A stretch of 15,253 bases of DNA, taken from a virus (Duplodnaviria; Heunggongvirae; Uroviricota; Caudoviricetes). The position numbers were made by a program, and so were the translations under genes. The stretch is taken from IMG/VR virus record IMGVR_UViG_2778261687_000008; one strand, written 5' to 3'. Shown piece after piece: positions 1-15,253 of the stretch; position 1 is the first letter of the stretch; each line of letters starts with the position of its first letter. The notes beneath the pieces were generated by a model that saw only the letters and a program-made list of their open reading frames with translations, searched no databases and was not told the DNA's origin.

Positions 1-207
1 TCAGTCAACCACCAGGGAATAATCCTTCATATTATTATCGTGCTTCACCAACGCTGCCTCAATTGCTCTGAATGCTTCCAGAGACACCTTATGTTCTATA
101 CATGCAATTACAACATCAGGGTAACTCATAGAAATGGTGCTATTAAGCATATTTTTTACACGAATCAGATCCACGGAGGGATCATCAGCAGATTGTTCTT
201 TATTCAT
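1..207 (-). CDS. ybcW: Small hypothetical protein, YbcW-like (68 aa)
   Basis: Complete ORF with TGA stop at the window start (1-3 on minus strand). Sequence and position (next to ybcV/bor) match my recollection of DLP12 ybcW. No function known. Confidence 0.55.
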
Positions 208-492
208 TTTGTCGCTCCATGCGCTTGCTCTTCATCTAGCGGTTAAAATATTACTTCAAATCTTTCTGTATGAAGATTTGAGCACGTTGGCCTTACATAC
301 ATCTGTCGGTTGTATTTCCCTCCAGAATGCCAGCAGGACCGCACTTTGTTACGCAACCAATACTATTAAGTGAAAACATTCCTAATATTTGACATAAATC
401 ATCAACAAAACACAAAGAGGTCAGACCAGATTGAAACGATAAAAACGATAATGCAAACTACGCGCCCTCGTATCACATGGAAGGTTTTACCA

Positions 493-903
493 ATGGCTCA
501 GGTTGCCATTTTTAAAGAAATATTCGATCAAGTGCGAAAAGATTTAAACTGTGAATTGTTTTATTCTGAACTAAAACGTCACAACGTCTCACATTATATT
601 TACTATCTAGCCACAGATAATATTCACATCGTGTTAGAAAACGATAACACTGTGTTAATAAAAGGACTTAAAAAGGTTGTAAATGTTAAATTCTCAAGAA
701 ACACGCATCTTATAGAAACGTCCTATGATAGGTTGAAATCAAGAGAAATCACATTTCAGCAATACAGGGAAAATCTTGCTAAAGCAGGAGTTTTCCGATG
801 GGTTACAAATATCCATGAACATAAAAGATATTACTATACCTTTGATAATTCATTACTATTTACTGAGAGCATTCAGAACACTACACAAATCTTTCCACGC
901 TAA
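493..903 (+). CDS. ybcV: DUF1398-family protein, YbcV-like (136 aa from ATG 493)
   Basis: ORF track frame 370-903. I chose ATG at 493 because it is preceded by GGAAGG about 8 nt upstream and gives the 136-aa length I recall for YbcV. Alternative starts are GTG 370 and ATG 451. Confidence 0.65.
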
Positions 904-1193
904 ATCATAACGTCCGGTTTCTTCCGTGTCAGCACCGGGGCGTTGGCATAATGCAATACGTGTACGCGCTAAACCCTGTGTGCATCGTTTTTAATTATTC
1001 CCGGACACTCCCGCAGAGAAGTTCCCCGTCAGGGCTGTGGACATAGTTAATCCGGGAATACAATGACGATTCATCGCACCTGACATACATTAATAAATAT
1101 TAACAATATGAAATTTCAACTCATTGTTTAGGGTTTGTTTAATTTTCTACACATACGATTCTGCGAACTTCAAAAAGCATCGGGAATAACACC

Positions 1194-1487
1194 ATGAAAA
1201 AAATGCTACTCGCTACTGCGCTGGCCCTGCTTATTACAGGATGTGCTCAACAGACGTTTACTGTTCAAAACAAACCGGCAGCAGTAGCACCAAAGGAAAC
1301 CATCACCCATCATTTCTTCGTTTCTGGAATTGGGCAGAAGAAAACTGTCGATGCAGCCAAAATTTGTGGCGGCGCAGAAAATGTTGTTAAAACAGAAACC
1401 CAGCAAACATTCGTAAATGGATTGCTCGGTTTTATTACTTTAGGCATTTATACTCCGCTGGAAGCGCGTGTGTATTGCTCACAATAA
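1194..1487 (+). CDS. borD: Bor-family outer-membrane lipoprotein (lambda Bor homologue, serum-resistance moron)
   Basis: 97-aa ORF with signal peptide and lipobox LITGC. Near-identical to my recollection of lambda Bor. Convergent with Rz, as in lambda. Confidence 0.9.
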   Translation: MKKMLLATALALLITGCAQQTFTVQNKPAAVAPKETITHHFFVSGIGQKKTVDAAKICGGAENVVKTETQQTFVNGLLGFITLGIYTPLEARVYCSQ

Positions 1488-1493
1488 TTGCAT

Positions 1494-1519
1494 GAGTTGC
1501 CCATCGATATGGGCAACTC
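1494..1519. terminator. Inverted repeat between convergent bor and Rz (candidate bidirectional terminator or RNA stabiliser)
   Basis: gagttgcccat-cgat-atgggcaactc forms an 11-bp stem with a 4-nt loop directly after both stop codons. There is no strong U-tract on either strand, so confidence is low. Confidence 0.3.
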
Positions 1520-1980
1520 TATCTGCACTGCTCATTAATATACTTCTGGGTTCCTTCCAGTTGTTTTTGCACAGTGATCAGCCTCTCTCTGAGGGTGAAA
1601 TAATCCCGTTCAGCGGTGTCTGCCAGTCGGGGGGAGGCTGCATTATCCACGCCGGAGGCGGTGGTGGCTTCACGCACTGACTGACAGACTGCTTTGATGT
1701 GCAACCGACGACGACCAGCGGCAACATCATCACGCAGAGCATCATTTTCAGCTTTAGCATCAGCTAACTCCTTCGTGTATTTTGCATCGAGCGCAGCAAC
1801 ATCACGCTGACGCATCTGCATGTCAGTAATTGCCGCGTTCGCCAGCTTCAGTTCTCTGGCATTTTTGTCGCGCTGGGCTTTGTAGGTAATGGCGTTATCA
1901 CGGTAATGATTAACAGCCCATGACAGGCAGACGATGATGCAGATAACCAGAGCGGAGATAATCGCGGTTACTCTGTTCAT
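1519..1980 (-). CDS. rzpD: Rz i-spanin (inner-membrane spanin subunit)
   Basis: Near-identical to lambda Rz as I recall it. N-terminal TM helix followed by a coiled-coil periplasmic domain. ATG at 1980-1978 overlaps the endolysin stop as ATGA. The ORF track's upstream start at 1992 is less likely. Confidence 0.85.
1578..1760 (-). CDS. rzoD: Rz1 o-spanin lipoprotein, embedded in the +1 frame of Rz
   Basis: 60-aa ORF entirely inside Rz in a different frame. Signal peptide with lipobox VVGC and a proline-rich mature part (PPPPPAW...PPPDW), matching lambda Rz1. Confidence 0.85.
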
Positions 1981-2474
1981 TGCTGACCCCACAAACAGAT
2001 TTCACGCTCAATCTCACGACGAGTCATGAGACCTTTCCATTGCTTACCGCCAGCATATGTCCAGCGACGTAGCTGATCACATGCGCCTTTGATATCGCCC
2101 TGGTTTATTTTGCGAAGAAGCGTCGATGTTCTGAAATTGCCAGCACCCACGTTGTAAACGAATGAGTAAAGAGCGCCGCGCGTTGTTTCCGGTATATCGA
2201 CTTTGATGTACGGGTTAATTTGTCTGGCGACAGTGGCAAGGTCTTTATTCAAGAGTGCTTTGCATTCTGCTTTGGTATACGTTTTACCGAGCATGATGTC
2301 TTTTCCTGTATGCCCGTGACATACAGTCCATACACCAACAATATCTTTATATGGTATGTAGCTGACACCTTCCAGACCATCATCACCACTCGGACCAGTG
2401 ATGAGCACAGACGCTATGGCAACAGCCCCACCACCAATAGCAGCTGCTACAGCCTTGCGTAATGATGGCGACAT
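1977..2474 (-). CDS. rrrD: SAR endolysin (T4-lysozyme-type, phage 21 R-like)
   Basis: 165 aa. N-terminal weakly hydrophobic Gly/Ala-rich SAR helix ([20 protein letters not shown]), then an E...D...T catalytic triad context (LEGVSY...KDIVGVWT). Start overlaps the holin stop by 1 nt (TAATG). Confidence 0.9.
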
Positions 2475-2689
2475 TATTCACCTCTCGCAGCCTTACGCTT
2501 ATCTTCTTTAATCTTGAAATAAAGGTTTGTCAGGTACGTCAGCAGGCCAAATACCAGGCTACCCAGCACTCCAATTGCCGCCCACTGTGAGGGCGTGACT
2601 TTATCTAGCAGCTGTAAAAACCAGTACCCGGCACTACCTGCTGAGGTGCCATAGGCGACACCCGTTGTTAACTTATCCATGGATTTCAT
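2474..2689 (-). CDS. essD: Pinholin (class II holin, S21-like)
   Basis: 71 aa with two TM helices and a charged C-terminus ([11 protein letters not shown]). Dual-start motif M1-K-S-M4, as in S21 holin/antiholin. Confidence 0.9.
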
Positions 2690-2810
2690 AACCCCACCTC
2701 GCAGACAAAGCGGGTGTAAATTGAGGGAATACTACGAAACGTAACAGACTCGGAGTCAGTGAATAACTCAGGTATTGGGTTATCAGCTAATATCGAGACT
2801 CAAAAAATGG

Positions 2811-2834
2811 AAAAACCCGCTCGACGGCGGGTTT
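2811..2834 (-). terminator. Candidate intrinsic terminator upstream of the lysis cassette (tR'-like position)
   Basis: Minus-strand reading is AAACCCGC-CGTCGA-GCGGGTTT followed by TTTTTCC: a GC-rich stem with a U-run, about 125 nt upstream of the holin start. Confidence 0.45.
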
Positions 2835-3262
2835 AAGCTGTGTGACGAAGTAACCACTCTTAACAGCATAACCAATTTTTTACGTACGTAAACCACTAAA
2901 TGATATTTGCGAGAATGCTACCGAGTATTGAAAACACCACTACAAATACATAAGCAAATCTCAACAAATAACCAACAAATAATTTACAGTGTTATTTTTA
3001 TCCGATTTAAATTGAACCTTCAAATTATAGATCACTTATAAATAACAGCCGTTAATATAAACTGGCTAATAGATTTATTTTTATTCAGCCACGAGCTATA
3101 AATAGGATTCGATAGAAAAAAGTTCAGATAAAAATAGAGATCTACTTCACAAATCAAACGAGAAACCAAAACTTACATCTTGAAATAATCACATTGATTA
3201 GATGAATATTTATCGCGCAGTGACATCATTTTTTAATAATAGTTCAAAAAAAAGGGCTCACG

Positions 3263-4345
3263 ATGAAAAAATTAACAGTGGCAATTTCTGCTGTAGCTGC
3301 ATCAGTACTGATGGCGATGTCTGCTCAGGCAGCTGAAATTTATAATAAAGACAGTAACAAGCTGGATCTGTACGGGAAAGTTAATGCTAAGCACTACTTC
3401 TCCTCTAATGATGCAGATGATGGTGATACTACTTATGCCCGTCTTGGCTTCAAAGGTGAAACCCAAATCAACGATCAGCTGACTGGTTTCGGTCAGTGGG
3501 AATATGAATTCAAAGGCAACCGCGCTGAATCTCAAGGTTCCTCCAAAGACAAAACCCGTCTTGCATTTGCAGGCCTGAAATTCGGTGACTACGGCTCAAT
3601 CGATTACGGCCGTAACTACGGTGTAGCATACGACATCGGTGCGTGGACTGACGTTCTGCCAGAATTCGGTGGCGATACCTGGACCCAAACAGATGTGTTC
3701 ATGACTGGTCGTACCACTGGTGTTGCAACCTATCGTAACAACGACTTCTTTGGTCTGGTTGATGGTCTGAACTTTGCTGCTCAGTATCAGGGTAAAAATG
3801 ACCGCACTGACGTAACTGAAGCTAATGGTGATGGTTTCGGTTTCTCCACTACTTATGAGTATGAAGGATTCGGTGTAGGTGCAACCTATGCTAAATCTGA
3901 CCGCACTAATAATCAGGTTATCTACGGTAACAACAGCCTGAATGCATCTGGTCAAAATGCTGAAGTATGGGCAGCTGGTCTGAAATATGATGCGAACAAC
4001 ATCTATCTGGCTACCACCTATTCTGAAACCCAGAACATGACTGTTTTTGGTAATAACCATATTGCCAACAAAGCACAAAACTTCGAAGTAGTTGCACAAT
4101 ATCAGTTCGACTTCGGTCTGCGTCCGTCCGTTGCTTACCTGCAATCTAAAGGAAAAGACTTGGGTGCGTGGGGTGATCAGGACCTGGTTGAATATATTGA
4201 TGTAGGTGCAACCTATTACTTCAACAAAAATATGTCCACTTTTGTTGATTACAAAATCAACCTGATTGATAAGAGCGATTTCACGAAAGCATCTGGCGTT
4301 GCTACCGATGATATCGTTGCTGTAGGTATGGTTTACCAGTTCTAA
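3263..4345 (+). CDS. nmpC: General bacterial porin, OmpC/OmpF/PhoE family (NmpC/Lc-type prophage porin), apparently intact
   Basis: 360 aa. Signal peptide ending AQA|AEIYNK, aromatic/glycine-rich beta-barrel pattern, C-terminal ...VYQF. AAAGGG Shine-Dalgarno upstream. Opposite strand to the flanking Q and lysis genes. Confidence 0.9.
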
Positions 4346-4360
4346 TTTGATTACTAAAAG

Positions 4361-4394
4361 ATATGTTGCGGGAGGCTTTGCCTCCCCAACATAT
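4361..4394. terminator. Long hairpin just downstream of the nmpC stop (candidate terminator or RNA structure)
   Basis: atatgttg-c-gggaggc-ttt-gcctccc-caacatat: 15 paired bases with one bulge. The minus-strand version is followed by CUUUU; the plus-strand version has no U-tract. Confidence 0.3.
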
Positions 4395-4482
4395 AAGTGG
4401 CTCCCTCAAGCCACTTCCTTTAGGAGCACAACCTTGCTTCTAACTATATAAACCTTCTGTTATATATTACCCTTTATTTTTG

Positions 4483-4506
4483 GGGGCGTTGCAACGCCCC
4501 ATTTTT
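4483..4506 (+). terminator. Candidate rho-independent terminator (plus strand)
   Basis: ggggcgttg/caacgcccc perfect 9-bp palindrome followed by A-TTTTT on the plus strand, about 140 nt downstream of nmpC. Confidence 0.5.
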
Positions 4507-4533
4507 AATAATTTTTAGTAAACAATTGGCATA

Positions 4534-4917
4534 TTAATTAGAGTTATTAACAACGATATCCATCTCTAACCGGATATCTAATGCCATTAACATCCCTTCA
4601 ATTATGCCCTCAGCCTTCTGTAACCTTTTCCCGATATAACCATCAGAGCAGCAATGCTTACCTGCCAGTGACATGAATGTCATACCGACTACATAATAAT
4701 CTACTAATAAATCGTGCAAATCGCTGTTGTTCTTTTTCAGACGGGCCATGCACCCGCAAATAATCATCGCGTCATCGTCACAACATTGCGGGCGAGATTT
4801 TACTTTTGAAGTAATTAATCCCTTAAAACCGGCGGCAATGGACGACCAGGTCACATCTTCATGATTATTAGCCGCCCACGCTCCCCAACGCTCAAGAACC
4901 ATCTGAATATCACGCAT
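4534..4917 (-). CDS. quuD: Late-gene antiterminator Q (phage 21/82-type)
   Basis: 127 aa from MRDIQMV. Cysteine-rich (CC...C..C and CC) zinc-binding pattern. Matches my recollection of DLP12 QuuD. The ORF track's 132-aa start at 4932 is probably too long. Confidence 0.8.
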
Positions 4918-5002
4918 CAACTTACTCCACAAAAATCAGACCAGAACGCCAATTACAAGCAAAAATCAACAAAACAGTATTAGTTGATTGTTATCTCTGA
5001 CT

Positions 5003-5140
5003 TCATACTCCTGCTCCTGTCAGGGTTTTGGCGTAATTCTTCAGTATTCGGTAATCGGTCAAAACAGAACCGGGGAAACGATATAAGCGCAGATGCCCCC
5101 AGCGGTGGCGAAGAAGTTCTGCCATATAAAACTCAAACAT
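5003..5140 (-). CDS. ylcG: Small protein YlcG-like (45 aa)
   Basis: Manually translated ([45 protein letters not shown]). Below the ORF-track length cutoff. Its ATG overlaps the rusA stop (TGATG). Confidence 0.55.
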   Translation of the reverse strand: MFEFYMAELLRHRWGHLRLYRFPGSVLTDYRILKNYAKTLTGAGV

Positions 5141-5501
5141 CATTCATTCCCCATTTCGGTGATGGTCAGTTCCAGCCTCCCACCTTTGGTAACAGGCATC
5201 TTCACAACGCGGTAATCAACGACCTGAGCATCATCCAGCCAGAAACCTGCTTTGGTGAGTGCGTCAAAAGCGGCTTTTTGCAGATTATCCAGGTCACGGC
5301 GACGGCGATCCGGCATGTGGCACTCAATACGGATTTTCACTGGCATAGCCAGGCCGATATCCAGCATTGCGTTTTTAATGATTCGGGTGACGTTATCGCG
5401 GTATGCCTGCCCTTCTGCGCTGATGTGTGTGCGCCCGCGATTATGGCGGTAATAGCGGTTATTGCTCGGAGGCCAGGGAATGTGATGCTGTAGGTATTCA
5501 C
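5140..5501 (-). CDS. rusA: RusA Holliday-junction resolvase; N-terminus is frame-disrupted (possible pseudogene or non-canonical start)
   Basis: The core ...[24 protein letters not shown]...[28 protein letters not shown]... is in one frame back to a stop at 5521-5523, with no ATG/GTG/TTG before the Met at 5365-5367. A GTG-NTYSIT N-terminus-like segment (5481-5501) sits in a different frame. Confidence 0.6.
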
Positions 5502-5788
5502 GCCTTAATAACCCCCTCTTTCAGCCAGATAACCTGCGTTCTCGCCATACCTTCCAGCGCGCATTCTTTTGCATACTCAGCATCGACAAAATATGTGCGG
5601 CGGTCGATTTCGTCGTGACAGGCAGAACATGCAATGGTGGCAATAAGGTCTGGCGGTTTAATACCGGTGCCGCACAATCCAGCCAGCCGGATATGTGCCA
5701 GTACAGACGTTTCAGGGTTGCCATTACATACGCCAGTGATTCTTACCTGGCATTCCCGACCACGCGCTGCTTTTCTCAAATCAGCCAT
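5498..5788 (-). CDS. ybcO: DUF1364-family protein YbcO-like (putative nuclease)
   Basis: 96 aa from [10 protein letters not shown]. Cysteine-rich. Start overlaps the ninE stop (ATGGCTGA). Gene-order context ninB-ninE-ybcO-rusA. Confidence 0.75.
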
Positions 5789-5951
5789 GATTCCTCCTTG
5801 CTGCCAGTCGCAACCATTTTTTATCAACCAGGCTGGCGGTATATCCGAGCAGTGTTGGTATTTCGGATGGCTTCAGCTCAGGTTTACGCTTACGACGATT
5901 TGGTACTCTGTAGATGTGTCCGTTCATGACACGAATAAGCGGTGTAGCCAT
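5781..5951 (-). CDS. ninE: NinE-family protein (56 aa)
   Basis: Manually translated [59 protein letters not shown] overlaps the ninB stop (TAATG). Not in the ORF track because it is under 60 aa. Confidence 0.75.
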   Translation of the reverse strand: MATPLIRVMNGHIYRVPNRRKRKPELKPSEIPTLLGYTASLVDKKWLRLAARRNHG

Positions 5952-6406
5952 TACGCCTCCTGCTTGTCGCGCAGCAGCTGGAACTCGCAGCTCTGCGGAA
6001 TAGTCAGGTGGCAGCCAATATTCATCGCCCAGGCTTCAACCTTACACAGGAAGACATACATCTCTCCGGCATCAAGATCGGAGGTATGGCGTAACGACTG
6101 GATAGTGGTGATTTCACCGGTTACGACATCAACCAGTTCTTTGGTTTCATAACCGAGGTATGTGTGTTTGAGAGCTTCTTTTACCCATGCTGCGGTAGCG
6201 AACGATTTCCCCCTGCTGATAAGGTATTCACTGATTTCGCTGTACCACATGTGGCTGAGTGCATTCTGGGAAAGACTGCGTTTCTCACGCCACGGTTTAA
6301 GCACCATGCGAAAGCATTTTCCGTCCTCCAGATAAGGCTGGATCTGCTGGCCGATAGCGGTGAAGTTGCCACGATGTAATTTGATGCCATCTTGTGGTAG
6401 GTTCAC
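5951..6406 (-). CDS. ybcN: NinB-family recombination protein (YbcN-like)
   Basis: 151 aa. GTG start preceded by GGAGGT. NinB-like pattern (R..SL.QN...) and position in the nin region. Confidence 0.8.
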
Positions 6407-6504
6407 GCTTCACCTCCGCAGAGGTCAAACGTTGGATGCAAAAAATCGCAGGTGCATTTCTGCATCTGTGAAGGGAGAAGAGAGTTTAGATTGTATGTGC
6501 GCAT
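6403..6504 (-). CDS. ylcH: Small cysteine-containing protein (33 aa), ylcH-like by position
   Basis: Manually translated [33 protein letters not shown]. Its stop overlaps the ybcN GTG start (GTGA). Identity rests on position and size only. Confidence 0.4.
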
Positions 6505-6832
6505 AAACGTCCCCGTTTAGCGCAAACCCACCGCCGGGTGTTCAGGCCGACAGTAACTATATTATTTCCTACTGTTTTTTAAAAATCAAAGGCCTTTATA
6601 CGTCACACGAGAGCAAATATTTCCGAAGAAGAAACCTTTCGCCTTGAAAGGATAAAGAGCTCATTTCATAAATTGAAATATTCAATAAGAATATTGCAAA
6701 AAATGAAATTATTTACTAGCGAGTCTATCTAACTGATAATTATGAAGATTGTAAGCGGTAGCAATCACCCGCATACACATTGAACAGGATTTAATACAAA
6801 ACGTCTTAAATTGTCCGTAAGGAATAGCACGA

Positions 6833-7849
6833 ATGACTCAAACTCCACTATTACTTGCAATCATATTTTTATTGGTTGTTCTTGTTCTATATATAGCTGC
6901 AATCAAACGCATCAAAAAAATACAATTAGAATTAAGTGATAGCAATCAAAAAAATGAAGAATACAAATCTCGCTTTGCAGATTATTTTAATGTGGAAGAG
7001 GAATGTAAGAAGCTTATTGAGAAAACAGAGCAAGAATGCTCCATTATAAAAGAAGAGTCCCAAAAAGTAAAAGAAAATGCCAATAATGAACTAACAAACA
7101 CCATTGAAAAAATGGATGGTATCAATAAACAAATCCAAGAACTAAGAAGAACTTATAAAGAGAAGAAAGAAATATATGATAAGCTAGTAAAGCAAATTTC
7201 TATTTATTCAGAAGATGTTGAACTAGCCGAACTAGGATTTTACGAACCTCATTTTAATTTTGAAGATTCAGAGCAATTTAAAAACAAAATAAAATCCATC
7301 AGGGATGAACAGAAATTAATGCTGCGGGATAAAACCCACTCTGGTGCAGTATATTGCACAACCCAATGGACTGTTGAAGGCTCTCGAGCAGAGGGTAAAA
7401 AAATGACAGACAGAAATATTAGGCTAACTACTAGAGCATTTAATAATGAATGTGATGCTGCAATTAGTAATTGCACGTGGAAAAATATCACTAAAATGGA
7501 AGAACGCATCACAAAGGCATTTGAGGACATAAATAAACTAAACGAGCAAAATCACATATATATAAATACTAAATACCTTAATAAAAAACTTGAGGAGTTG
7601 TGGCTTACCCATGAATATCGTGAGCAAAAACAGAAAGAAAAAGAAGAACAGGCAGAAATAAGGGCACAAATGAGAGAGGAGGAGCGTGCACAACGAGAAA
7701 TAGAAAAGGCCATGCAAGACGCAGAGGCAGAAGAGCGCCGTTATAAAAAAGCAATTGAAGCTGCAAGAAAGGAAATGGAAAAAGTTACTGGTGACATGAA
7801 GCAGCGCCTCGAAAATCGCATTGCCGAACTAGAACAGAGTTTGTCGTAG
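6833..7849 (+). CDS. Membrane-anchored coiled-coil protein (DUF4041-like N-terminal module; cargo gene A)
   Basis: 338 aa. Single N-terminal TM helix (LLLAIIFLLVVLVLYIAAI), then long E/K/Q-rich heptad-like coiled-coil segments and a highly charged C-terminus. AAGGA Shine-Dalgarno 10 nt upstream. AT-rich codon usage. Confidence 0.7.
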   Translation: MTQTPLLLAIIFLLVVLVLYIAAIKRIKKIQLELSDSNQKNEEYKSRFADYFNVEEECKKLIEKTEQECSIIKEESQKVKENANNELTNTIEKMDGINKQIQELRRTYKEKKEIYDKLVKQISIYSEDVELAELGFYEPHFNFEDSEQFKNKIKSIRDEQKLMLRDKTHSGAVYCTTQWTVEGSRAEGKKMTDRNIRLTTRAFNNECDAAISNCTWKNITKMEERITKAFEDINKLNEQNHIYINTKYLNKKLEELWLTHEYREQKQKEKEEQAEIRAQMREEERAQREIEKAMQDAEAEERRYKKAIEAARKEMEKVTGDMKQRLENRIAELEQSLS

Positions 7850-7879
7850 GCTGAATCAAAGCATCAAAGAGCATTATCC

Positions 7880-8335
7880 ATGGCACAACAAACCAAACAA
7901 GGTCATGTTTATATTATTTCGAACATAGGTTCTTTTGGGGAGAATGTTTATAAAATAGGCATGACACGACGTCTTGATCCACAAGACCGTGTAAATGAGC
8001 TTGGTGATGCATCTGTTCCTTTTATTTTTGATGTGCATGCCATGATTTATTCGGAGGACGCTCCATCATTAGAAAAAAAACTACATGATGTCTTCGATAA
8101 AAAGAGAGTCAATCTTGTAAATCGTAGAAAAGAGTTTTTCTATGTTACTCTGGATGAGATCAAAGAAGCTGTTAAAAAACACTCTGATTCAGAAATTGAA
8201 TTTATTGAGACAGCAGTCGCAAAAGACTTTAATGAGTCATTGGCTATTCGTAATCATGAAAATAAAAAAAGCGACAACAGCAACTCATCAATCATACTTG
8301 AGCGAAAAATCCCAGAGTTTGCAGATGTAATTTAA
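7880..8335 (+). CDS. T5orf172 / GIY-YIG-like nuclease-domain protein (cargo gene B); in frame with gene A across a single TAG
   Basis: 151 aa. Motifs GHVYIISN...VYKIGMTRR...R..EL...PF fit the GIY-YIG / T5orf172 (MUG113) pattern. Weak Shine-Dalgarno. Same reading frame as gene A with 10 sense codons between. Confidence 0.65.
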   Translation: MAQQTKQGHVYIISNIGSFGENVYKIGMTRRLDPQDRVNELGDASVPFIFDVHAMIYSEDAPSLEKKLHDVFDKKRVNLVNRRKEFFYVTLDEIKEAVKKHSDSEIEFIETAVAKDFNESLAIRNHENKKSDNSNSSIILERKIPEFADVI

Positions 8336-8604
8336 TTAATTTGTAGTTAAAACAAAACAGGCATCGTTGATACTTTTTGGTCAGCGATGCTTACATCCTC
8401 CTCTCGGAAAACGTCGATTACTTGCAACTTTATTTTTAATTTCCAGCAGCAAGTACTAATGCACAACCTCCATTACATACTGATTTGAACATCACGAATC
8501 CCGCCTCTAGCTTAAACTACAAAGTATTACCAGAATCAATCTTATTCATAACTAAACTCCACAGACCAATTGAACATATGAATCCATATTGATATGCTAC
8601 ATCA

Positions 8605-8633
8605 CAATGTGTTAACCATTAGATAACACATTG
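8605..8633. promoter_or_regulatory. Perfect 10-bp inverted repeat with 9-bp spacer upstream of the HD-domain gene (candidate operator)
   Basis: caatgtgtta-N9-taacacattg, 62-90 nt upstream of the ATG at 8695. Its right arm overlaps a TTGAAA -35-like hexamer (8631-8636). Confidence 0.3.
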
Positions 8634-8694
8634 AAACTATAAACATCATTACTATTTAAATTTCGTATTATAACTACAGCAAAAGGAAAGCCTC

Positions 8695-10242
8695 ATGACA
8701 AACAAAAACAAACTTGAGAACTTTGAAGACTTACTTCTGGGGAAGTTTTTAGATCCCATACATGGAGTGATTCGAATAACTAAGCTAGAAAAAAAGATAA
8801 TTGACCATCCTTTATTCCAACGACTACGAGATATCAGGCAGAACACGTTTCTATATAAAGTATTTCCTTCTGCAATGCACTCTCGCTTTGAACACTCTGT
8901 CGGTGTAATGCATTTATCGTATGAAATATTAAAAAATATTGATTTAAATGCACTAATTTACAATCGAAAAAATATGGGCATTGATCTATATTTAGATATA
9001 AAAAAAATGCCTTCAAGTCTTATACAGGAGTTACGTATTGCAGCATTGTTACACGATGTTGGGCATGGCCCACTTGCCCACCAATTCGATAGTTTTGCAA
9101 TATCCGTAAAAGATTTCAAAGAAAAATGCAAAACTGAAGGAAATAAACAATACGATAAGATTATATCTTTAAGTGATAATGACAAGTTAACCCACGAACA
9201 AGTATCATGTATTTTTATTAAAGAAATTATTGAAGAATTAAAAAATGAAGCCCAAGATAAATCAAATGACGACGATGTCTATAAAGAAAACATAGCGGCT
9301 ATTAATCCAGAAAGCATTATAAAAATTGTTGATAAAAGATATGATTTTAAAAATAACATTGAGGGAGTAAATGTATATCCTTTATTAGGTTCAATCATAT
9401 CATCTTCACCTATAGATGCGGACAGAATGGACTACCTACTTAGAGATAGCTACTTCTCCGGCGTTAAATATGGGATTTATGATTATGGACGATTATTAAT
9501 GTCATTTATTCCTGTGAAAGTTGAAAATAGTGTTTACCTGGCATATAAAGAAAGTGGTATGGATTCAATACTAGAATTTGCCAATGCAAGAAGTGGGCTT
9601 TATAGTCAAGTTTATTTTCATAAGACCAATCGTGCACTATCTGCGATGCTTAACAAAGCGTGTTCTAGAAAAAAAACTGATGATGTTGTCTATTTAAAAT
9701 CTAAAAACACTCTCATTGAGTCCATCAAACACTTTTATCGTGAAAACCCAGACAAAACGTTTTTAGAAAACACTCTTAAAAACACATTAGATAAAAATTC
9801 TCAAGCTATAATTCAAGATATTGTTGATAGAAATGTTTGGAAAAAAATATATGAAAAAAAACACACGTTTTCTAATGTTAACATTTCCGACAACAGATAC
9901 AAAGAATATAAACAAAATATATCTAAGAAAATCAACAAAATCATTGAGGATAATTTAAAAGGAGATGAATGGGTTCTTGATTTTCAGATTGAAGATAACT
10001 TTAAAGATATCGATACAAGTCAAGCTAAAATAATAAAAAAAGAAACAGGCGGCAAGTATACAATAAATGATTTATGTAAGTATAACGATGTACTTCAACC
10101 CTATCACTATGTTAAATTCTTTATTCGAGTTTTTGTTTCTAAGACAACTCAACTCCAAAACACCGAAGAAATTAATGTGTTAATAAAAAAAATAGATAAA
10201 TGTCTTAATGATGAGATTGATCATATTAAAAAAGACAAGTAG
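8695..10242 (+). CDS. HD-domain dNTP triphosphohydrolase, SAMHD1/dGTPase-like (cargo gene C)
   Basis: 515 aa. Motifs DPIHG (aa 20-24), RFEHSVGV (H67), LLHDVGHGPLAH (H120-D121) and DADRMDYLLRD (aa 241-251) align with the SAMHD1-type catalytic core as I recall it. AAGGAAAG Shine-Dalgarno. Lys-rich, divergent C-terminal third. Confidence 0.85.
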   Translation: MTNKNKLENFEDLLLGKFLDPIHGVIRITKLEKKIIDHPLFQRLRDIRQNTFLYKVFPSAMHSRFEHSVGVMHLSYEILKNIDLNALIYNRKNMGIDLYLDIKKMPSSLIQELRIAALLHDVGHGPLAHQFDSFAISVKDFKEKCKTEGNKQYDKIISLSDNDKLTHEQVSCIFIKEIIEELKNEAQDKSNDDDVYKENIAAINPESIIKIVDKRYDFKNNIEGVNVYPLLGSIISSSPIDADRMDYLLRDSYFSGVKYGIYDYGRLLMSFIPVKVENSVYLAYKESGMDSILEFANARSGLYSQVYFHKTNRALSAMLNKACSRKKTDDVVYLKSKNTLIESIKHFYRENPDKTFLENTLKNTLDKNSQAIIQDIVDRNVWKKIYEKKHTFSNVNISDNRYKEYKQNISKKINKIIEDNLKGDEWVLDFQIEDNFKDIDTSQAKIIKKETGGKYTINDLCKYNDVLQPYHYVKFFIRVFVSKTTQLQNTEEINVLIKKIDKCLNDEIDHIKKDK

Positions 10243-10283
10243 AGCCCCCCTGATGTTTTAAAAAACATCTTAACTATAAACAC

Positions 10284-10318
10284 AACGCCATTAGTTACTC
10301 TCAGTAACTAGTGGCGTT
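10284..10318 (+). terminator. Long hairpin downstream of the HD-domain gene (candidate terminator or processing/stability element)
   Basis: aacgccattagttact-ctc-agtaactagtggcgtt: 16-bp stem (one G-U wobble) with a 3-nt loop, 42 nt after the stop. No U-tract. Confidence 0.35.
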
Positions 10319-10612
10319 CATGTCTAATGATTGACCCGCAGTATTATCTGGTGCTTGTCAATCAGATTTATTCATTGTTTAATACTACCTCAGCATCCTG
10401 TTATACGCTACACAACCATTATTACTCATCCTTTGAGTTACATTTAATATCTAAAATATTTTTGTGTTAATCAATGTGTGGATATATTCCCTACTAATTC
10501 ACTAATTCATACAGCACCAAGCTAGAAACATTGTTATAGTTCCCCGCACAAAGCAAACCATTAAATTTGATTGGATGTTTTCGAGATAACCATCAAATCA
10601 AGTAATAACTAA

Positions 10613-10894
10613 TCACCCATATACCGCCAACACCCGCTTCATCGCGGCACTCTGGCGACACTCCTTAAAAATCAGGTTCGTGCTCACCTTTCCTTCCCGT
10701 TCTTCTCTGGTAGCGAACCGGTAATACACCGTTCGCCAGACCTTACCATCAATGACCAGGATTCCTGCCCGCGCCATTTTAGCTGCTGCCTGATTTATGC
10801 AGGTTACTGTCACACCTGTTGCCGCAGCAACGTCCTGCGCACAGAAGCTCTTGTGCGTCTCCAGATAATGAATAATTACCTCTTTGCCCGTCAT
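10613..10894 (-). CDS. ren: Ren-like protein (lambda ren homologue)
   Basis: 93 aa, near-identical to my recollection of lambda Ren. ATGA overlap with the P stop. Confidence 0.8.
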   Translation of the reverse strand: MTGKEVIIHYLETHKSFCAQDVAAATGVTVTCINQAAAKMARAGILVIDGKVWRTVYYRFATREEREGKVSTNLIFKECRQSAAMKRVLAVYG

Positions 10895-11592
10895 ACAGTT
10901 GCTCCTTTCAGTCCGAACTTCGCTTTGATTTCTGCGATCTTCGCCAGAGCCTGTGCACGATTTAGAGGTCTACCGCCCATGACAGGAAGTTGTTTTACTG
11001 GTTCAGGTATCGCCTCACCACGGTTAATTCGCGCGGTCATACAAGTCAGTTCATCGGCAGCCTTGCGCCGTAATTCCGCATCAGTAAGCGCATTGGCCCG
11101 CATGTTCTGGTACAGGTTGGTAACCAGCCAGTAGTGCGCGTTTGATTTCCACGGATAAGACTCTGCATCCGGATACAGGCCACGCTTCCGACAATACTCA
11201 TAGACCATATCAACCAGCTCGCTGACGTTTGGCAGCCCGGCGTTAACGGATGCTTCTTCCCGGCACCAGGCAACAAACTGCCCGGGTGATGGCAGGAATG
11301 GTCGATTCTGCCGACGGGCTACGCGCATTCCTGCGTTAACCTGTTCCATTGTGGTGATCCCGTTTTCCCGGAAAGCCAGCACCCACTGGCGGCGGATTTC
11401 GTTCAGTTCGTTCTGGTCCCGGTTAGCCAGGCTCGCCGGGAAAGTTGCCAGTAACTGGCTGAACACACCATTGATGATCTGCGCTACCTGTTGTACCTGC
11501 GGCTTTTCGTCGTACTGTTCCGGCATGTTGTTGGCGATCCGGCGCATCTGCTCACGGTCAAAGTTAACCATCTGTGCGGCGATGTTTTTCAT
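10891..11592 (-). CDS. P: Replication protein P (DnaB helicase loader), lambda P-like
   Basis: 233 aa, near-identical to lambda P as recalled. Start overlaps the O-fragment stop (ATGA). Confidence 0.9.
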   Translation of the reverse strand: MKNIAAQMVNFDREQMRRIANNMPEQYDEKPQVQQVAQIINGVFSQLLATFPASLANRDQNELNEIRRQWVLAFRENGITTMEQVNAGMRVARRQNRPFLPSPGQFVAWCREEASVNAGLPNVSELVDMVYEYCRKRGLYPDAESYPWKSNAHYWLVTNLYQNMRANALTDAELRRKAADELTCMTARINRGEAIPEPVKQLPVMGGRPLNRAQALAKIAEIKAKFGLKGATV

Positions 11593-11786
11593 AGCTCCAC
11601 CCCGTAAATCCAGTCAGTGTTCGTCAGGTCGAGTTTTGGTTTGCCGGCTGTCACGCCAGCCTGTTGCTTGTTTCGGTTGATTTCGAGCTGGGTCCACTTG
11701 TCGCGGAGTTTGGCCGGACTCAGCACGTTACCGGACCAGAAGTTGTCCTGGCATGCCCAGCGGAACAGTACACACATGTCGCGGTG
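11589..11786 (-). pseudogene. O: C-terminal fragment of replication initiator O (N-terminal origin-binding part absent)
   Basis: The frame ends ...FWSGNVLSPAKLRDKWTQLEINRNKQQAGVTAGKPKLDLTNTDWIYGVEL, matching the lambda O C-terminus. Upstream residues of the ORF are antisense to exo and not O-like. The upper boundary is approximate. Confidence 0.7.
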
Positions 11787-11787
11787 G

Positions 11788-11829
11788 TTCCTGAAACAGA
11801 AAGCCACTGAGCAGAAGGTGGCAGCATGA
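11788..11829 (+). pseudogene. bet: 3' remnant of bet (Red-beta) fused at a deletion junction
   Basis: Last about 13 codons encode [13 protein letters not shown] with the stop overlapping the exo ATG (ATGA), matching the lambda Bet C-terminus as recalled. Nothing Bet-like lies further upstream. Confidence 0.5.
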
Positions 11830-12506
11830 CACCGGACATTATCCTGCAGCGTACCGGGATCGACGTGAGAGCTGTCGAACAGGGGGATGATGCATGGCAC
11901 AAATTACGGCTCGGCGTCATCACCGCTTCAGAAGTTCACAACGTGATAGCAAAGCCCCGCTCAGGAAAGAAGTGGCCTGACATGAAAATGTCCTACTTCC
12001 ACACCCTGCTGGCTGAGGTTTGCACCGGTGTGGCTCCGGAAGTTAATGCTAAGGCGCTGGCCTGGGGAAAACAGTACGAGAACGACGCCAGAACCCTGTT
12101 TGAATTCACTTCCGGCGTGAATGTTACTGAATCCCCGATCATCTATCGCGACGAAAGTATGCGCACCGCCTGCTCTCCAGATGGTTTATGCAGTGACGGC
12201 AACGGCCTTGAACTGAAATGCCCGTTTACCTCCCGGGATTTCATGAAATTCCGGCTCGGTGGTTTTGAGGCAATAAAATCGGCTTACATGGCCCAGGTGC
12301 AGTACAGCATGTGGGTGACGCGAAAAGATGCCTGGTACTTTGCCAACTATGACCCGCGCATGAAGCGTGAAGGCCTGCATTATGTCGTGATTGAGCGGGA
12401 TGAAAAGTACATAGCGAGTTTTGACGAGATGGTGCCGGAGTTCATCGAAAAAATGGACGAGGCACTGGCTGAAATTGGTTTTGTATTTGGGGAGCAATGG
12501 CGATGA
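11826..12506 (+). CDS. exo: Lambda-type exonuclease (Red-alpha / Exo)
   Basis: 226 aa, near-identical to lambda Exo as recalled. Appears full-length. Confidence 0.9.
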
Positions 12507-12685
12507 CGCATCCTCACGATAATATCCGGGTAGGCGCGATCACTTTCGTCTACTCCATTACAAAGCGAGGCTGGGTATTTCCCGGCCTTTCTGTTATCAG
12601 AAATCCACTGAAAGCACAGCGGCTGGCTGAGAAGATAAATAATAAACGGGGGGCTGTATGCATAAAGCATCTCCCGTTGAGTTAA
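12503..12685 (+). CDS. Small phage protein, lambda orf60a-like (60 aa)
   Basis: ATG overlaps the exo stop (ATGA). Size and position match lambda orf60a. Confidence 0.55.
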
Positions 12686-12849
12686 GAACGAGTATCGAGA
12701 TGGCACATAGCCTCGCTCAAATTGGAGTCAGGTTTGTGCCAATACCAGTAGAAACAGACGAAGAATTTCATACGTTAGCCGCATCCCTTTCACAAAAGCT
12801 GGAAATGATGGTGGCGAAAGCAGAAGCAGATGAGAGAGACCAGGTATGA
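12658..12849 (+). CDS. Small phage protein, lambda orf63-like (63 aa)
   Basis: 63-aa [26 protein letters not shown]..., at the lambda orf63 position. It overlaps the preceding ORF by 28 nt in another frame. Confidence 0.55.
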   Translation: MHKASPVELRTSIEMAHSLAQIGVRFVPIPVETDEEFHTLAASLSQKLEMMVAKAEADERDQV

Positions 12850-12929
12850 CAACCACTGAATGCATTTTTCTGGCAGCGGGCTTCATATTCTGTGTGCTTA
12901 TGCTTGCCGACATGGGACTTGTTCAATGA
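12846..12929 (+). CDS. Putative 27-aa hydrophobic micro-protein (translationally coupled on both sides)
   Basis: Manually translated MTTTECIFLAAGFIFCVLMLADMGLVQ. Its start overlaps the orf63-like stop (ATGA) and its stop overlaps the next ORF's ATG (ATGA). Speculative. Confidence 0.3.
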   Translation: MTTTECIFLAAGFIFCVLMLADMGLVQ

Positions 12930-13141
12930 CACCTCAGCAGGAAAACGCCCTTCGCAGCATTGCCCGTCAGGCTAATTCTGAAATCAAAAAAGCCAGACAG
13001 CAGTTTCCGGATAAAAACGTCGATGACATTTGCCGTAGCGTACTGAAGAAGCACCGCGAAACGGTAACGCTGATGGGATTCACACCGACTCATTTAAGCC
13101 TGGCGATCGGCATGTTAAACGGCTTCTTTAAGGAGCGATGA
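12926..13141 (+). CDS. Hypothetical phage early-left region protein (71 aa)
   Basis: ORF from ATG 12926 (MTPQQENALRSIARQANSEIKK...). The ORF track's longer version from 12860 overlaps the micro-ORF. Followed by a terminator-like hairpin. Confidence 0.5.
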   Translation: MTPQQENALRSIARQANSEIKKARQQFPDKNVDDICRSVLKKHRETVTLMGFTPTHLSLAIGMLNGFFKER

Positions 13142-13161
13142 ACATGAAAAGCAAAATCATC

Positions 13162-13185
13162 AGGGAGCTACAGGCTCCTTTTTTA
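13162..13185 (+). terminator. Candidate rho-independent terminator
   Basis: a-gggagc-tacag-gctcct followed by TTTTTT, about 20 nt after the stop at 13141. Confidence 0.45.
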
Positions 13186-13239
13186 TTATTCGCATTCACC
13201 CTCAAGCGTATTAACCAACAATTCAGGGATTAATGGAAG

Positions 13240-13458
13240 ATGGCAGACATCATTGATTCAGCATCAGAAATCGAAGAATTACAGCGCAATACAGCAATAA
13301 AAATGCGTCGTCTGAACCACCAGGCTATATCTGCCACTCATTGTTGTAAGTGTGGCGATCCCATAGATGAACGAAGACGCCTGGCCGTTCAGGGTTGTCG
13401 GACTTGTGCAAGTTGCCAGGAGGAGATCGAACTTAAGAACAAACAATGGGGATTGTGA
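13240..13458 (+). CDS. TraR/DksA-family C4 zinc-finger protein (lambda orf73-like)
   Basis: 72 aa. Cys pairs CCKCG...CRTCASC with the spacing typical of DksA/TraR zinc fingers. Acidic N-terminal helix. Confidence 0.7.
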   Translation: MADIIDSASEIEELQRNTAIKMRRLNHQAISATHCCKCGDPIDERRRLAVQGCRTCASCQEEIELKNKQWGL

Positions 13459-13505
13459 TGGCCTCAAAGCAGCAAATTTCAACATCGTCCAACTGAGGTG
13501 TAAAA

Positions 13506-13745
13506 ATGTTCAGAATCATTTTTCCTGACACCTGGTACGTCGACCACCACGGCACTCCCTGCAAAATCCTGCGTTCTACCCACAACAAAGTTCACTACAT
13601 CCGAAAAGGCAGAACATGTATCGCCAGCATGTTCCGCTTTAATCATGACTTTGAACCTGTGAATAAAGCTGATGCAGATCGGATAGCAGAAGAGATCGAA
13701 ACGGCAGAACACATTAAGAAGTTACGTGCCATACGCAGGAAATAG
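13506..13745 (+). CDS. Hypothetical protein (79 aa)
   Basis: ORF track only; GAGG about 8 nt upstream. No recognised motifs. Confidence 0.4.
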   Translation: MFRIIFPDTWYVDHHGTPCKILRSTHNKVHYIRKGRTCIASMFRFNHDFEPVNKADADRIAEEIETAEHIKKLRAIRRK

Positions 13746-13884
13746 AAAAATTGATAAATTCAATACTGCATTTCTCAGCATTAAATTTATCTCTATGACC
13801 AGTCAAGAGATGTACCTGCCATGAGCTTAATATCATGTCAGATATATCGGTCACAAACTCCCTCAGCAGCTAAGAGGAGGACAA

Positions 13885-14121
13885 ATGTCTCGACTAATCA
13901 CTTTACAGGACTGGGCTAAAGAAGAATTTGGGGACTTAGCACCAAGTGAGCGAGTTCTGAAAAAATACGCGCAAGGGAAAATGATGGCCCCACCCGCTAT
14001 AAAAGTTGGTCGCTACTGGATGATTGACCGAAATTCCCGTTTTGTAGGAACGCTGGCAGAACCGCAACTCCCAATAAACGCAAACCCAAAACTCCAACGG
14101 ATAATCGCTGATGGCTGCTAG
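13885..14121 (+). CDS. xis: Putative excisionase / recombination directionality factor
   Basis: 78-aa ORF with strong AAGAGGAGG Shine-Dalgarno. Ends 11 nt inside the integrase ORF, the typical xis-int arrangement. Not lambda-Xis-like in sequence. Confidence 0.55.
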   Translation: MSRLITLQDWAKEEFGDLAPSERVLKKYAQGKMMAPPAIKVGRYWMIDRNSRFVGTLAEPQLPINANPKLQRIIADGC

Positions 14122-15253
14122 ACCCCGATCTCACAAAATCTCTATACCCAATTTATATTGCAAATTAGATAAGCGAACCGGAAAGGTATATTGGCAATAC
14201 AAACATCCACTATCCGGTCGTTTTCATAGCTTAGGAACTGATGAGAATGAAGCAAAACAAGTTGCTACTGAAGCAAATACCATTATTGCTGAACAACGTA
14301 CCAGACAAATATTAAGCGTCAATGAGCGTCTGGAAAGAATGAAAGGCAGGCGCTCAGACATTACGGTGACAGAATGGCTTGATAAATATATTTCTATCCA
14401 GGAGGACAGGCTGCAACATAATGAACTAAGACCCAACTCCTATCGGCAAAAAGGCAAACCCATTCGTCTTTTCCGTGAGCATTGTGGAATGCAACACCTC
14501 AAGGATATTACCGCACTTGATATTGCCGAAATAATTGATGCTGTAAAGGCTGAAGGTCATAACAGGATGGCGCAAGTCGTGAGAATGGTGTTGATCGACG
14601 TCTTCAAAGAAGCACAACACGCAGGACATGTTCCGCCAGGATTTAACCCAGCGCAGGCAACAAAACAACCGCGAAATCGAGTAAACCGCCAAAGATTGTC
14701 ACTGCCCGAATGGCAGGCAATATTTGAAAGCGTAAGCAGACGGCAGCCCTATTTAAAATGCGGCATGCTACTTGCTCTTGTTACTGGACAACGTTTAGGC
14801 GATATCTGCAATTTGAAATTCTCTGATATATGGGACGACATGTTGCACATTACTCAGGAAAAAACCGGTTCAAAACTTGCTATTCCGCTTAACCTGAAAT
14901 GCGATGCTCTGAATATTACCCTTCGTGAAGTTATATCTCAGTGCAGGGATGCTGTTGTTAGTAAATATCTGGTCCATTACCGTCACACTACCTCTCAAGC
15001 AAACAGAGGAGACCAGGTTTCTGCAAATACTCTGACAACGGCTTTTAAAAAGGCCAGGGAAAAATGTGGCATAAAATGGGAGCAAGGAACTGCGCCCACA
15101 TTTCATGAGCAGCGATCTCTGTCAGAACGGTTATATCGGGAACAGGGTCTGGATACGCAAAAGTTGTTAGGCCATAAATCCAGAAAAATGACCGACCGAT
15201 ACAATGATGATCGTGGTAAAGACTGGGTTATCGTAGATATCAAAACAGCATAG
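14111..15253 (+). CDS. int: Phage integrase, tyrosine recombinase family
   Basis: 380 aa. C-terminal catalytic pattern: Arg box, HEQRS (HxxR), LLGHKS and Tyr in DRYNDD. Stop TAG is at the last bases of the window, so att sites are expected outside it. Confidence 0.9.
   Translation: MAARPRSHKISIPNLYCKLDKRTGKVYWQYKHPLSGRFHSLGTDENEAKQVATEANTIIAEQRTRQILSVNERLERMKGRRSDITVTEWLDKYISIQEDRLQHNELRPNSYRQKGKPIRLFREHCGMQHLKDITALDIAEIIDAVKAEGHNRMAQVVRMVLIDVFKEAQHAGHVPPGFNPAQATKQPRNRVNRQRLSLPEWQAIFESVSRRQPYLKCGMLLALVTGQRLGDICNLKFSDIWDDMLHITQEKTGSKLAIPLNLKCDALNITLREVISQCRDAVVSKYLVHYRHTTSQANRGDQVSANTLTTAFKKAREKCGIKWEQGTAPTFHEQRSLSERLYREQGLDTQKLLGHKSRKMTDRYNDDRGKDWVIVDIKTA

Follow-up and report, generated by a model that had tools for sequence, protein, structure and literature searches.

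How does a lambdoid prophage come to have its replication genes and its recombination genes head-to-head, with little more than the tails of O and bet between P and exo? The question is raised by a 15,253-nucleotide stretch of viral DNA (the “window” in what follows), for which an earlier note, made from the letters alone, had proposed a true deletion junction, in which a 3′ remnant of bet meets an internal point of O. Alignment with the prophage of E. coli B-1109 (NZ_CP117971, 3062391–3082026) confirms this. All 15,253 bases of the window have counterparts in the B-1109 prophage, at 99.9% identity, and the two agree in gene order, integrase and cargo; B-1109, however, keeps a further 4,382 bp that begin in O, run through YdaT, cro, an S24 repressor gene, kil and gam, and end in bet.

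The join and the missing segment

In a BLAST comparison, window positions 1–11789 correspond to positions 6001–17790 of the B-1109 locus and positions 11790–15253 to positions 22173–25636, collinear on both sides of the 4,382-bp gap and with identities of 99.93–99.97%; the additional B-1109 sequence falls exactly between 11789 and 11790. The alignment to lambda and its relatives that the earlier note had suggested for finding the breakpoint was thus run against B-1109 and lambda, and it placed the join to the base. Compared base by base with B-1109 locus 17741–17831 and 22133–22213, the window joins at 11789/11790 (the junction is marked by the sequence ACATGTCGCGGTGGTTCCTGAAACAGAAAGCC), and the two parental ends overlap by TT at 11788–11789, the sole microhomology, at the end of the interval of about 11780–11790 in which one had been guessed. 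Neither an IS scar nor a target duplication was seen at the join in this comparison. A Chi-like GCGGTGG at the left breakpoint was rejected by eye, with mismatches at three of eight positions (GCTGGTGG). In lambda, the equivalent positions are 39385 (in O) and 32064 (in bet), about 7.3 kb apart as against the 4,382 bp lost from the parent of the window.

The content of the gap was read from the B-1109 annotation, its open reading frames and Pfam. Lost from the parent are O residues 1–273, a YdaT-domain gene, a YdaS/Cro-like gene, the S24 repressor, kil, gam and nearly all of bet, with Pfam matches to Phage_rep_O, YdaT_toxin, YdaS/P22_Cro, Peptidase_S24 plus HTH, Gam and RecT. Five palindromic iterons of 17–22 nt (B-1109 locus 18052–18168) lie within the deleted part of O and adjoin a stretch of 30–37% GC, also inside it, and an operator-like palindrome with a 9-bp stem separates the cro-like gene from the divergently oriented repressor gene. 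The list of lost genes drawn up beforehand therefore holds for the repressor and cro, kil, gam, the O N-terminus and the origin, but not for N, rex, cII and cIII, which are neither annotated nor seen in the B-1109 parent.

The missing functions were also sought elsewhere in the window. By tblastn, the 15.25 kb contain no match to lambda N, cI, cro, cII, cIII, kil, gam, rexA or rexB, and no further match to the repressor, cro, YdaT, kil or gam of the parent, so that no cI/cro/N region is contiguous with the junction within this stretch. The origin iterons have no match in the window when up to three mismatches are allowed, and searches of the whole window with Rfam (gathering threshold) and for tRNAs found nothing.

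The stumps on either side

On the minus strand, the O remnant (11589–11789) consists of the stop codon at 11589–11591 and the last 66 codons at 11592–11789, that is, residues 274–339 of the 339-residue B-1109 O, to which they are 100% identical; identity to lambda O residues 233/234–299 is 97%. Only the C-terminal domain is present. The remnant matches PHROG 277 (“replication initiation O-like”) at profile positions 250–317 of 318 only, and the Phage_rep_O origin-binding domain, parental residues 51–145 and deleted, has no Pfam match in the 103-aa open reading frame that crosses the junction. The O segment is thus a pseudogene fragment rather than a divergent initiator that has kept its full length. 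The stop of the O remnant overlaps the start of P (10891–11592, minus strand; 233 aa; PF06992 Phage_lambda_P, E 8.8e-62), an intact replication protein gene that does not differ at any base from P of B-1109 (locus 16892–17593). P is followed downstream, in what used to be the pR operon, by a ren-like gene (10613–10894, minus strand; 93 aa; PHROG 142 “Ren-like exclusion protein,” E 1.3e-40), annotated as “protein ren” in the related prophage of strain 730V1.

On the plus strand, the bet remnant (11790–11829) comprises the last 12 codons, or 13 (FLKQ…) if the TT is counted, and a TGA stop. Its translation was compared with the tail of lambda Bet, which reads FLKQKAAEQKVAA before the stop, and tblastn maps Bet residues 249–261 to 11788–11826. 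The RecT domain (PF03837; residues 24–183 of the 261-aa parental Bet) is gone, and only residues 249/250–261 survive. Codon counts of about 65 for O and about 13 for bet, estimated at the outset, were accurate. The TGA of bet overlaps the ATG of exo as ATGA at 11826–11829; exo itself (11826–12506, plus strand; lambda exonuclease, 226 aa) is intact, with an uninterrupted frame and a full-length YqaJ domain at residues 24–167 (PF09588, E 6e-30), as had been supposed when a bet tail abutting an intact exo was first described. Base by base, it does not differ from exo of B-1109, and the exo side is 97.4% identical in nucleotides to lambda 30653–32066.

The exo gene of the window now stands without bet and without pL. 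The promoters of P and exo have been lost because they lay between these diverging genes, in the deleted segment. The view that exo has no native promoter is thereby upheld, and P shares this condition. Nor did the join create a substitute: a promoter scan found no promoter-like site in 11300–12200, and a terminator scan around the junction returned one weak terminator-like hairpin only, at chance level. Any residual expression of exo or P would have to come from read-through or from host-controlled promoters.

Origin, age and consequences of the deletion

The arrangement is best explained, with a probability of about 85% together with its consequences for the prophage, by one 4,382-bp deletion, which would have arisen by illegitimate recombination at a 2-nt TT microhomology in a lambdoid prophage at icd. 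The deletion took everything between O codon 274 and bet codon 249, so that the surviving stumps, P-ren-nin-Q leftward and exo-xis-int rightward, now diverge from a promoterless join. With the core lost, the sequence predicts a prophage incapable of repression, of induction via repressor cleavage and of replication from its own origin, much as the earlier note had held for repression and replication, the repressor/cro switch, the origin and the DNA-binding domain of O all being gone. No repressor-controlled induction is predicted under mitomycin C or SOS conditions. For the host, the deletion may have been neutral to mildly advantageous, because the SOS-inducible kil, replication and lysis programme of the prophage would be disarmed. 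In both of the closest relatives head and tail genes have been lost, with truncation of portal, protease and tail genes, although B-1109 keeps the immunity region; judging from these two relatives, since the window stops outside the head/tail region, the prophage probably could no longer make particles.

The junction is rare. A 201-nt query found no spanning match in any of 5,426 complete E. coli genomes, the exact 32-mer of the junction found nothing in GTDB species genomes or IMG/VR, and no record of the phage collection spans the join. Twenty matches to a junction 19-mer in unrelated bacteria, archaea and metagenomes were rejected as chance, because their flanks differ (25–36 of 61 positions identical). 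Being absent from the 5,426 genomes and the three other collections, the junction looks recent and private, and a recent deletion event is also what flanks only about 0.03% diverged from those of the relatives would suggest. The intact immunity segment is present in 1,951 of the 5,426 complete genomes (36%), and keeping it is therefore clearly tolerable.

Could more than one event, or none at all, have produced the join? The prophage of 730V1 (E. coli O19:H7, NZ_CP061764) has flanks 99.9% identical to the window, likewise adjoins icd and has also lost its immunity region, but it differs in carrying two IS5-family elements between a 435-nt O remnant and gam, with gam and bet intact. An IS5-mediated rearrangement of this kind might thus have come before a deletion that removed the IS5 copies and more of O, gam and bet: everything missing from 730V1 falls inside the deletion of the window, and the window shares four SNP states with 730V1 against B-1109. 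Those four states, however, are equally well changes private to B-1109, 730V1 has five private changes that the window lacks, the three copies are about equidistant in SNPs, and two events are invoked where one suffices, with no IS scar or target duplication left behind; we consider this route unlikely. That the contig is a chimera, assembled from two lambdoid prophages of one genome, is highly improbable. O/P and bet/exo do occur in many copies in E. coli (at a median of two places per genome, in many genomes), but repeat-driven misassembly joins shared repeats in the same orientation, and here unrelated sequences with 2 nt in common meet head-to-head, while both flanks lie in one prophage, in the same order and orientation, in B-1109 and in 730V1. 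Both comparisons leave the single deletion as the preferred reading.

A separate matter is whether what the deletion left behind, or made, does anything for the host. Two chimeric frames arose at the join: a 17-codon mini-ORF (11775–11829, plus strand), found on translating 11617–11850, which ends in the ATGA overlap with exo and is a fact of the sequence only, and a putative 103-aa ORF with a GTG start (11589–11900, minus strand), in which 37 codons antisense to the bet remnant and exo precede the 66 C-terminal codons of O. The latter belongs to no Pfam family. Lambda O interacts with P through its C-terminal part. One might accordingly imagine that the 103-aa product, whose frame is open from the GTG at 11900 through the last 66 residues of O, titrates P of incoming lambdoid phages and so excludes them, the more so as the C-terminal domain of O makes up most of a 124-aa phage family, PHROG 2357. 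Yet the frame has neither a promoter-like site nor an upstream ATG start, its N-terminal extension is antisense junk without a family match, the junction is private and recent, and comparable O stumps are annotated as pseudogenes, so that the chance of a working fragment is next to nil. The broader proposal, made with the first description of the locus, was of a domesticated element whose cargo is retained by selection, that is, one in which benefit to the host maintains the porin, bor and defence genes and possibly exo and P as well. In its favor, the porin, bor, Q, the lysis genes, an HD/SAMHD1-like gene, P and exo are intact in the window, and immunity-less versions can evidently persist, since a different O′|exo junction is common to 23 genomes from varied hosts. 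With a private junction and flanks that have diverged by about 0.03%, however, intact genes prove nothing here: too little time has passed since the event for it to inform on retention. The relatives were already defective, and two of the five changes private to the window, in comparison with B-1109 and 730V1, are inactivating. These are a frameshift in rusA (a 1-nt deletion at 5478/5479) and a nonsense codon in PD-Lambda-1/SNIPE (TAG, 7847) that severs the nuclease domain, which is essential for SNIPE (SNIPE paper); both genes are intact in B-1109, and none of 131 strains that carry the SNIPE gene has the nonsense allele. SNPs at 1572, 3062 and 6526 are also private to the window, and five private changes are too few substitutions for dN/dS of the retained genes. 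Domestication does not follow from these observations, and we think it improbable.

Other junctions and known prophages

The deletion in the window is not the only one of its type. Among E. coli prophages, at least 10 other junction classes join stumps of the replication module to stumps of the recombination module, and in 7 of the 10 IS-free classes the ends overlap by the dinucleotide TA. Several sites have been re-used: one in P at parent coordinate 17496 with three partners, and those at 22234 (exo), 22913 and 22609 (exo) with two each. Together, TA overlap and re-use would point to an enzyme that prefers certain sites, for example a transposase with TA as its target or a serine recombinase that uses pseudo-sites. 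The IS5 target YTAR does not account for the TA sites (only two of nine fit), inspection of the ends of TA-class deleted segments for the terminal inverted repeats of pseudo-transposon excision saw none, and PMC13320796 contained nothing relevant on prophage-inactivating deletions under SOS stress. It is possible, if doubtful, that lambdoid prophages in E. coli are recurrently “disarmed” in a partly directed manner, with the TT junction of the window, which lies at unique sites, belonging to the spontaneous background.

The wider importance of the window deletion is small: it is a base-level record, with the parental sequence at hand, of how the core for regulation and replication disappears from a defective lambdoid prophage. 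For annotation, O and bet become pseudogene fragments and exo and P promoterless genes. Repressor-based immunity cannot be assumed for the carrier, nor, provided that the stop at 7847 is genuine, can SNIPE defence. The many independent junctions, mostly at re-used TA sites, are a by-product that could matter more than the deletion itself and deserve a proper survey.

A join of similar type is that of the O′|exo class of 23 genomes (e.g., Z1323CEC0018), whose prophage adjoins icd in the one locus examined. Its ends are displaced from those of the window by only 37 nt on the side of O and 62 nt on that of bet/exo, and it represents an independent event: it retains a further 37 nt of O, has lost the end of bet and the initial 26 nt of exo, and overlaps by TA. 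Its flanks match the window at only 95–98% identity, and in place of the PD-Lambda-1 and HD cargo it has emrE and a serine recombinase. We put the closeness of the two sets of ends down mostly to ascertainment rather than to a hotspot, because the query retrieves nearby junctions only and other classes end elsewhere.

Such decay of the immunity region is ordinary and long known from DLP12 of E. coli K-12, which was compared at the exoD′–peaD′ junction (NC_000913, 566098–566687). As in the window, a recombination stump (in DLP12 a remnant of exo) stands head-to-head with a replication stump (in DLP12 a remnant of P), gam, kil, repressor and cro are missing, and ren, the nin region, Q (quuD) and the lysis cassette are kept. 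The late region of the window is the DLP12 set according to the annotation of its 99.9% identical relatives (ybcW, ybcV, bor, rzpD, rrrD, essD, quuD, ylcG, rusA, ybcO, ninE and ybcN); positions 1–5000 are collinear with quuD, essD, rrrD, rzpD, bor, ybcV and ybcW of B-1109 and 730V1, with three base substitutions, one of them in rzpD, and neither an indel nor a new stop. The differences are equally clear. DLP12 sits at argU with intD, whereas the window element carries an icd-site integrase (14111–15253), after which icd, or a remnant of it (icd′), comes next in the B-1109, 730V1 and Z1323CEC0018 loci. In K-12, the ends that met lie within P and within exo (parent coordinates 17203 and 22610) and overlap by TA, and bet and O are absent; the overlap in the window is TT, and because its breakpoints fall within O and at the bet terminus, these two genes survive as remnants and P and exo are intact. 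The window element is thus of the same kind as DLP12, an immunity-deleted cryptic lambdoid prophage, and not DLP12 itself.

The deletion junction and what remains of O and bet

The 15.25-kb window takes in the half of a lambdoid prophage that carries its regulatory and late genes. The two prophages closest to it, in E. coli B-1109 (NZ_CP117971) and in E. coli O19:H7 730V1 (NZ_CP061764), are each 99.9% identical over the whole window. By the annotation of these relatives, the window runs through ybcW, ybcV, bor, rzpD, rrrD, essD and an OmpC/NmpC-type porin, then quuD (Q), ylcG, rusA, ybcO, ninE and ybcN, followed by two cargo genes on the plus strand (DUF4041 and HD-domain), the ren-like gene and P, and finally exo, DUF1317, DUF1382, a TraR/DksA-like gene, DUF4222, xis and the integrase. 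Either icd or an icd' remnant follows the integrase in both relatives and in the prophage of Z1323CEC0018 (L001); the late region is of DLP12 type and the integration module of the icd-site type. In the B-1109 locus (L002), right-end prophage genes are found at both flanks of the element (1–5253 and 27733–31636), namely the AAA ATPase of an McrBC-like pair and, after it, remnants of tail fibre, J, protease and portal genes. With an icd' remnant also present behind int, the arrangement points to two tandem prophage copies or a duplicated end.

Alignment shows that window 1–11789 corresponds to L002 6001–17790 (7 mismatches, one 1-nt gap) and 11790–15253 to L002 22173–25636 (1 mismatch), with the 4,382 bp of L002 17791–22172 absent from the window. 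The O-side parental end reads ...GCGGTGGTT followed by ACGTCC, the bet-side end ...CTTGGATT followed by CCTGAAA, and the window ...GCGGTGGTTCCTGAAA over the join; the lambda equivalents of the ends are 39385 (O) and 32064 (bet). The deletion is thus seen directly, and the junction that the earlier note had placed within 11589–11830 is located to the base, with a microhomology of TT (11788–11789). These are the only bases common to both parental ends, which is the signature of illegitimate recombination, not of homologous or site-specific recombination; replication slippage or break repair at the 2-nt microhomology would be the cause, following the standard inference for such joins.

P is intact (10891–11592, minus strand; PF06992, E 9e-62), its start overlapping the stop of the O-like frame, of which only 66 codons are left (11592–11789, minus strand). 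This remnant is O: it matches residues 274–339 of B-1109 O (339 aa) at 100% identity and residues 233–299 of lambda O at 97%. On the plus strand the last 12 codons of bet persist (11790/11791–11826; 13 if the shared TT is given to bet), and the sequence ATGA holds both their TGA stop and, overlapping it, the start codon of an intact exo (226 aa). Remnants of O and bet in front of P and exo had been described correctly from the sequence alone. The alternative considered there, a full-length divergent initiator, is ruled out, since the remnant aligns to no more than the extreme C-terminus of the PHROG profiles for O-like initiators, and a Pfam search finds no Phage_rep_O domain in it. The immunity proteins of the parent itself have no homologue elsewhere in the window, and neither have lambda N, cI, cro, cII, cIII, kil, gam and rexAB.

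Two gene runs lead away from the junction in opposite directions, P-ren-nin-Q on the minus strand and exo-xis-int on the plus strand. The promoters formerly between the P and exo operons are gone, and a consensus scan of 11300–12200 finds no promoter-like site on either strand. Two chimeric frames cross the join. One is a minus-strand ORF of 103 aa with a GTG start, in which 37 antisense codons precede the O C-terminal domain; the other is a plus-strand mini-ORF of 17 codons whose end lies in the ATGA shared with exo. No sign of expression was found for either. The most plausible source of residual exo transcripts would be read-through from the two cargo genes, since these are the only plus-strand genes upstream of exo and just one weak terminator-like hairpin lies between.

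Content of the lost segment

The lost segment encodes O residues 1–273, including the Phage_rep_O domain, and holds five palindromic iterons (TTACCTGATTCRGGTAA; L002 18052–18168) beside a 30–37% GC stretch, which together make up an ori-lambda-type origin inside O. The iteron motif has 0 matches in the window, even at 3 mismatches. Beyond O the lost segment continues, in this order, with a YdaT-domain gene (at the position of cII), a YdaS/P22-Cro-like gene, a divergent intergenic region bearing an operator-like palindrome, a LexA/cI-type repressor (S24 peptidase plus HTH), 590 bp with no convincing ORF, and kil, gam and bet. The losses enumerated in the earlier note were those of lambda; in the real parent, B-1109, N, rex, cII and cIII are not evident. 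Its conclusion that the element can neither repress nor replicate from its own origin holds, as repressor and origin lie within the lost segment, and the element is predicted not to be inducible through its repressor.

The intact module O-YdaT-YdaS/cro-S24 repressor-kil-gam-bet (L002 17591–22212) is present in 1,951 of 5,426 complete E. coli genomes (at least 80% coverage, 95–99% identity) and is among the commonest lambdoid immunity modules in E. coli; some copies bear IS21 or IS5 insertions.

Age of the deletion and the proposed domestication

The exact junction occurs in 0 of the 5,426 complete E. coli genomes, and is absent from the GTDB set (one representative genome per species), from IMG/VR and from the phage collection; a 19-mer of the junction has matches in genome and metagenome collections, but these lie in unrelated organisms and are due to chance. 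Within 15.2 kb the window, B-1109 and 730V1 copies have 4–5 private changes each. So few private changes, with a junction absent from the collections, mark the deletion as apparently recent and, as far as the searched collections show, private to the source strain.

The proposal that the element is domesticated, its cargo kept by selection, is not supported, given prior defects in the relatives, the youth of the event and inactivating private changes. Portal, protease and tail genes are truncated in both close relatives, one of which still has a complete immunity region, so the prophage was probably already defective before the deletion, with the caveat that the window stops short of its own structural genes. 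Intact reading frames are uninformative because the event is too young, and two of the five private changes of the window are inactivating. In rusA (Holliday junction resolvase; 5140–5501, minus strand) a 1-nt deletion at 5478/5479 shifts the frame at codon 8: the window has GGGAATG where the two 99.9% relatives have GGGTAATG. This may be a true pseudogene or an error in the sequencing. In the DUF4041/T5orf172 gene (6833–8335, plus strand; 500 aa), whose product is PD-Lambda-1 (PADLOC, E 2.5e-198), since renamed SNIPE, a C-to-T change at 7847 turns codon 339 from CAG to TAG (7847–7849) and removes the GIY-YIG nuclease domain (residues 357–449 here), which SNIPE requires for defence against lambda (PMC13190303). 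This TAG allele is found in 0 of the 131 complete E. coli genomes with the gene. If the rusA and SNIPE changes are not sequencing errors, the window copy is decaying, not maintained.

The adjoining HD-domain protein (8695–10242, plus strand; 515 aa; PHROG 35128) is intact in the window, matches human SAMHD1 (E ≈ 1e-25, residues 19–430) as well as bacterial HD dNTPases, and has no PADLOC v2 match. It is a SAMHD1-like dNTP triphosphohydrolase homologue, and a candidate nucleotide-depletion defence gene.

An advantage of the loss itself can also be envisaged: in a defective prophage with an SOS-cleavable repressor, kil, O/P/ori, Q and a lysis cassette, induction could kill the host and yield no phage, a risk that would disappear with the 4.4-kb core. 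The same loss ends repressor-based immunity to superinfection, and the wide occurrence of intact copies argues that the cost of keeping the immunity region is small. Overall, we see a recent, private loss of the immunity, origin and recombination core from a prophage that was probably already defective; the deletion is real and precisely described, yet ordinary.

Comparable losses in other prophages

A synthetic query of P-3' and exo-3' recovered further junction classes: P–bet (two joins), P–exo (three), P–DUF1317, O–DUF1317 and ren–exo. When ten IS-free classes (related loci L001, L003–L005, L008 and L029–L034) were placed on the B-1109 sequence, 7/10 had an overlap containing TA (TA, GTA, GTACC or TTAC), and breakpoints were re-used (L002 coordinates): P 17496 is joined to bet 22017, to exo 22234 and to position 22913; the last two have second partners in O, at 17827 and 17731, respectively; and exo 22609 has P 17203 (K-12) and ren 16814 as partners. 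Under a random-join null, TA occurs in only 2.8% of joins with at least 2 nt of overlap, and its presence in 7/9 has a binomial P of ≈ 4e-10, uncorrected for classes that are not fully independent; the pattern is far from the random-join expectation. No terminal inverted repeats were found at the TA-class junctions, and the IS5 target rule fits these sites poorly; as ideas only, one may think of serine recombination at pseudo-sites or of a transposase that targets TA. The window join (TT, unique sites) belongs, with those of L029 and L034, to a minority that looks like plain illegitimate recombination.

Another O'–exo join is common to 23 genomes; its ends lie 37 and 62 nt from those of the window, and the two are independent because each keeps bases absent in the other. 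In 730V1 the immunity core was lost by another route, with two IS5-family elements between a 435-nt O stump and gam: an ISKpn26-like element and IS5, in opposite orientation with 55–58 nt of O sequence between them, replace the core (15110–17419 of its locus), one of them having entered the origin region of O at TTAG. Junction classes are many, yet the O-to-bet segment is intact in 1,951 of the 5,426 genomes, so that loss is recurrent and retention the common state. In the cryptic prophage DLP12 of K-12, an exo remnant (exoD', 264 nt) lies head-to-head with a P remnant (peaD', 312 nt), with nothing left of bet, gam, kil, the immunity genes or O; the deletion in the window is an already known, ordinary type of event, as in DLP12.
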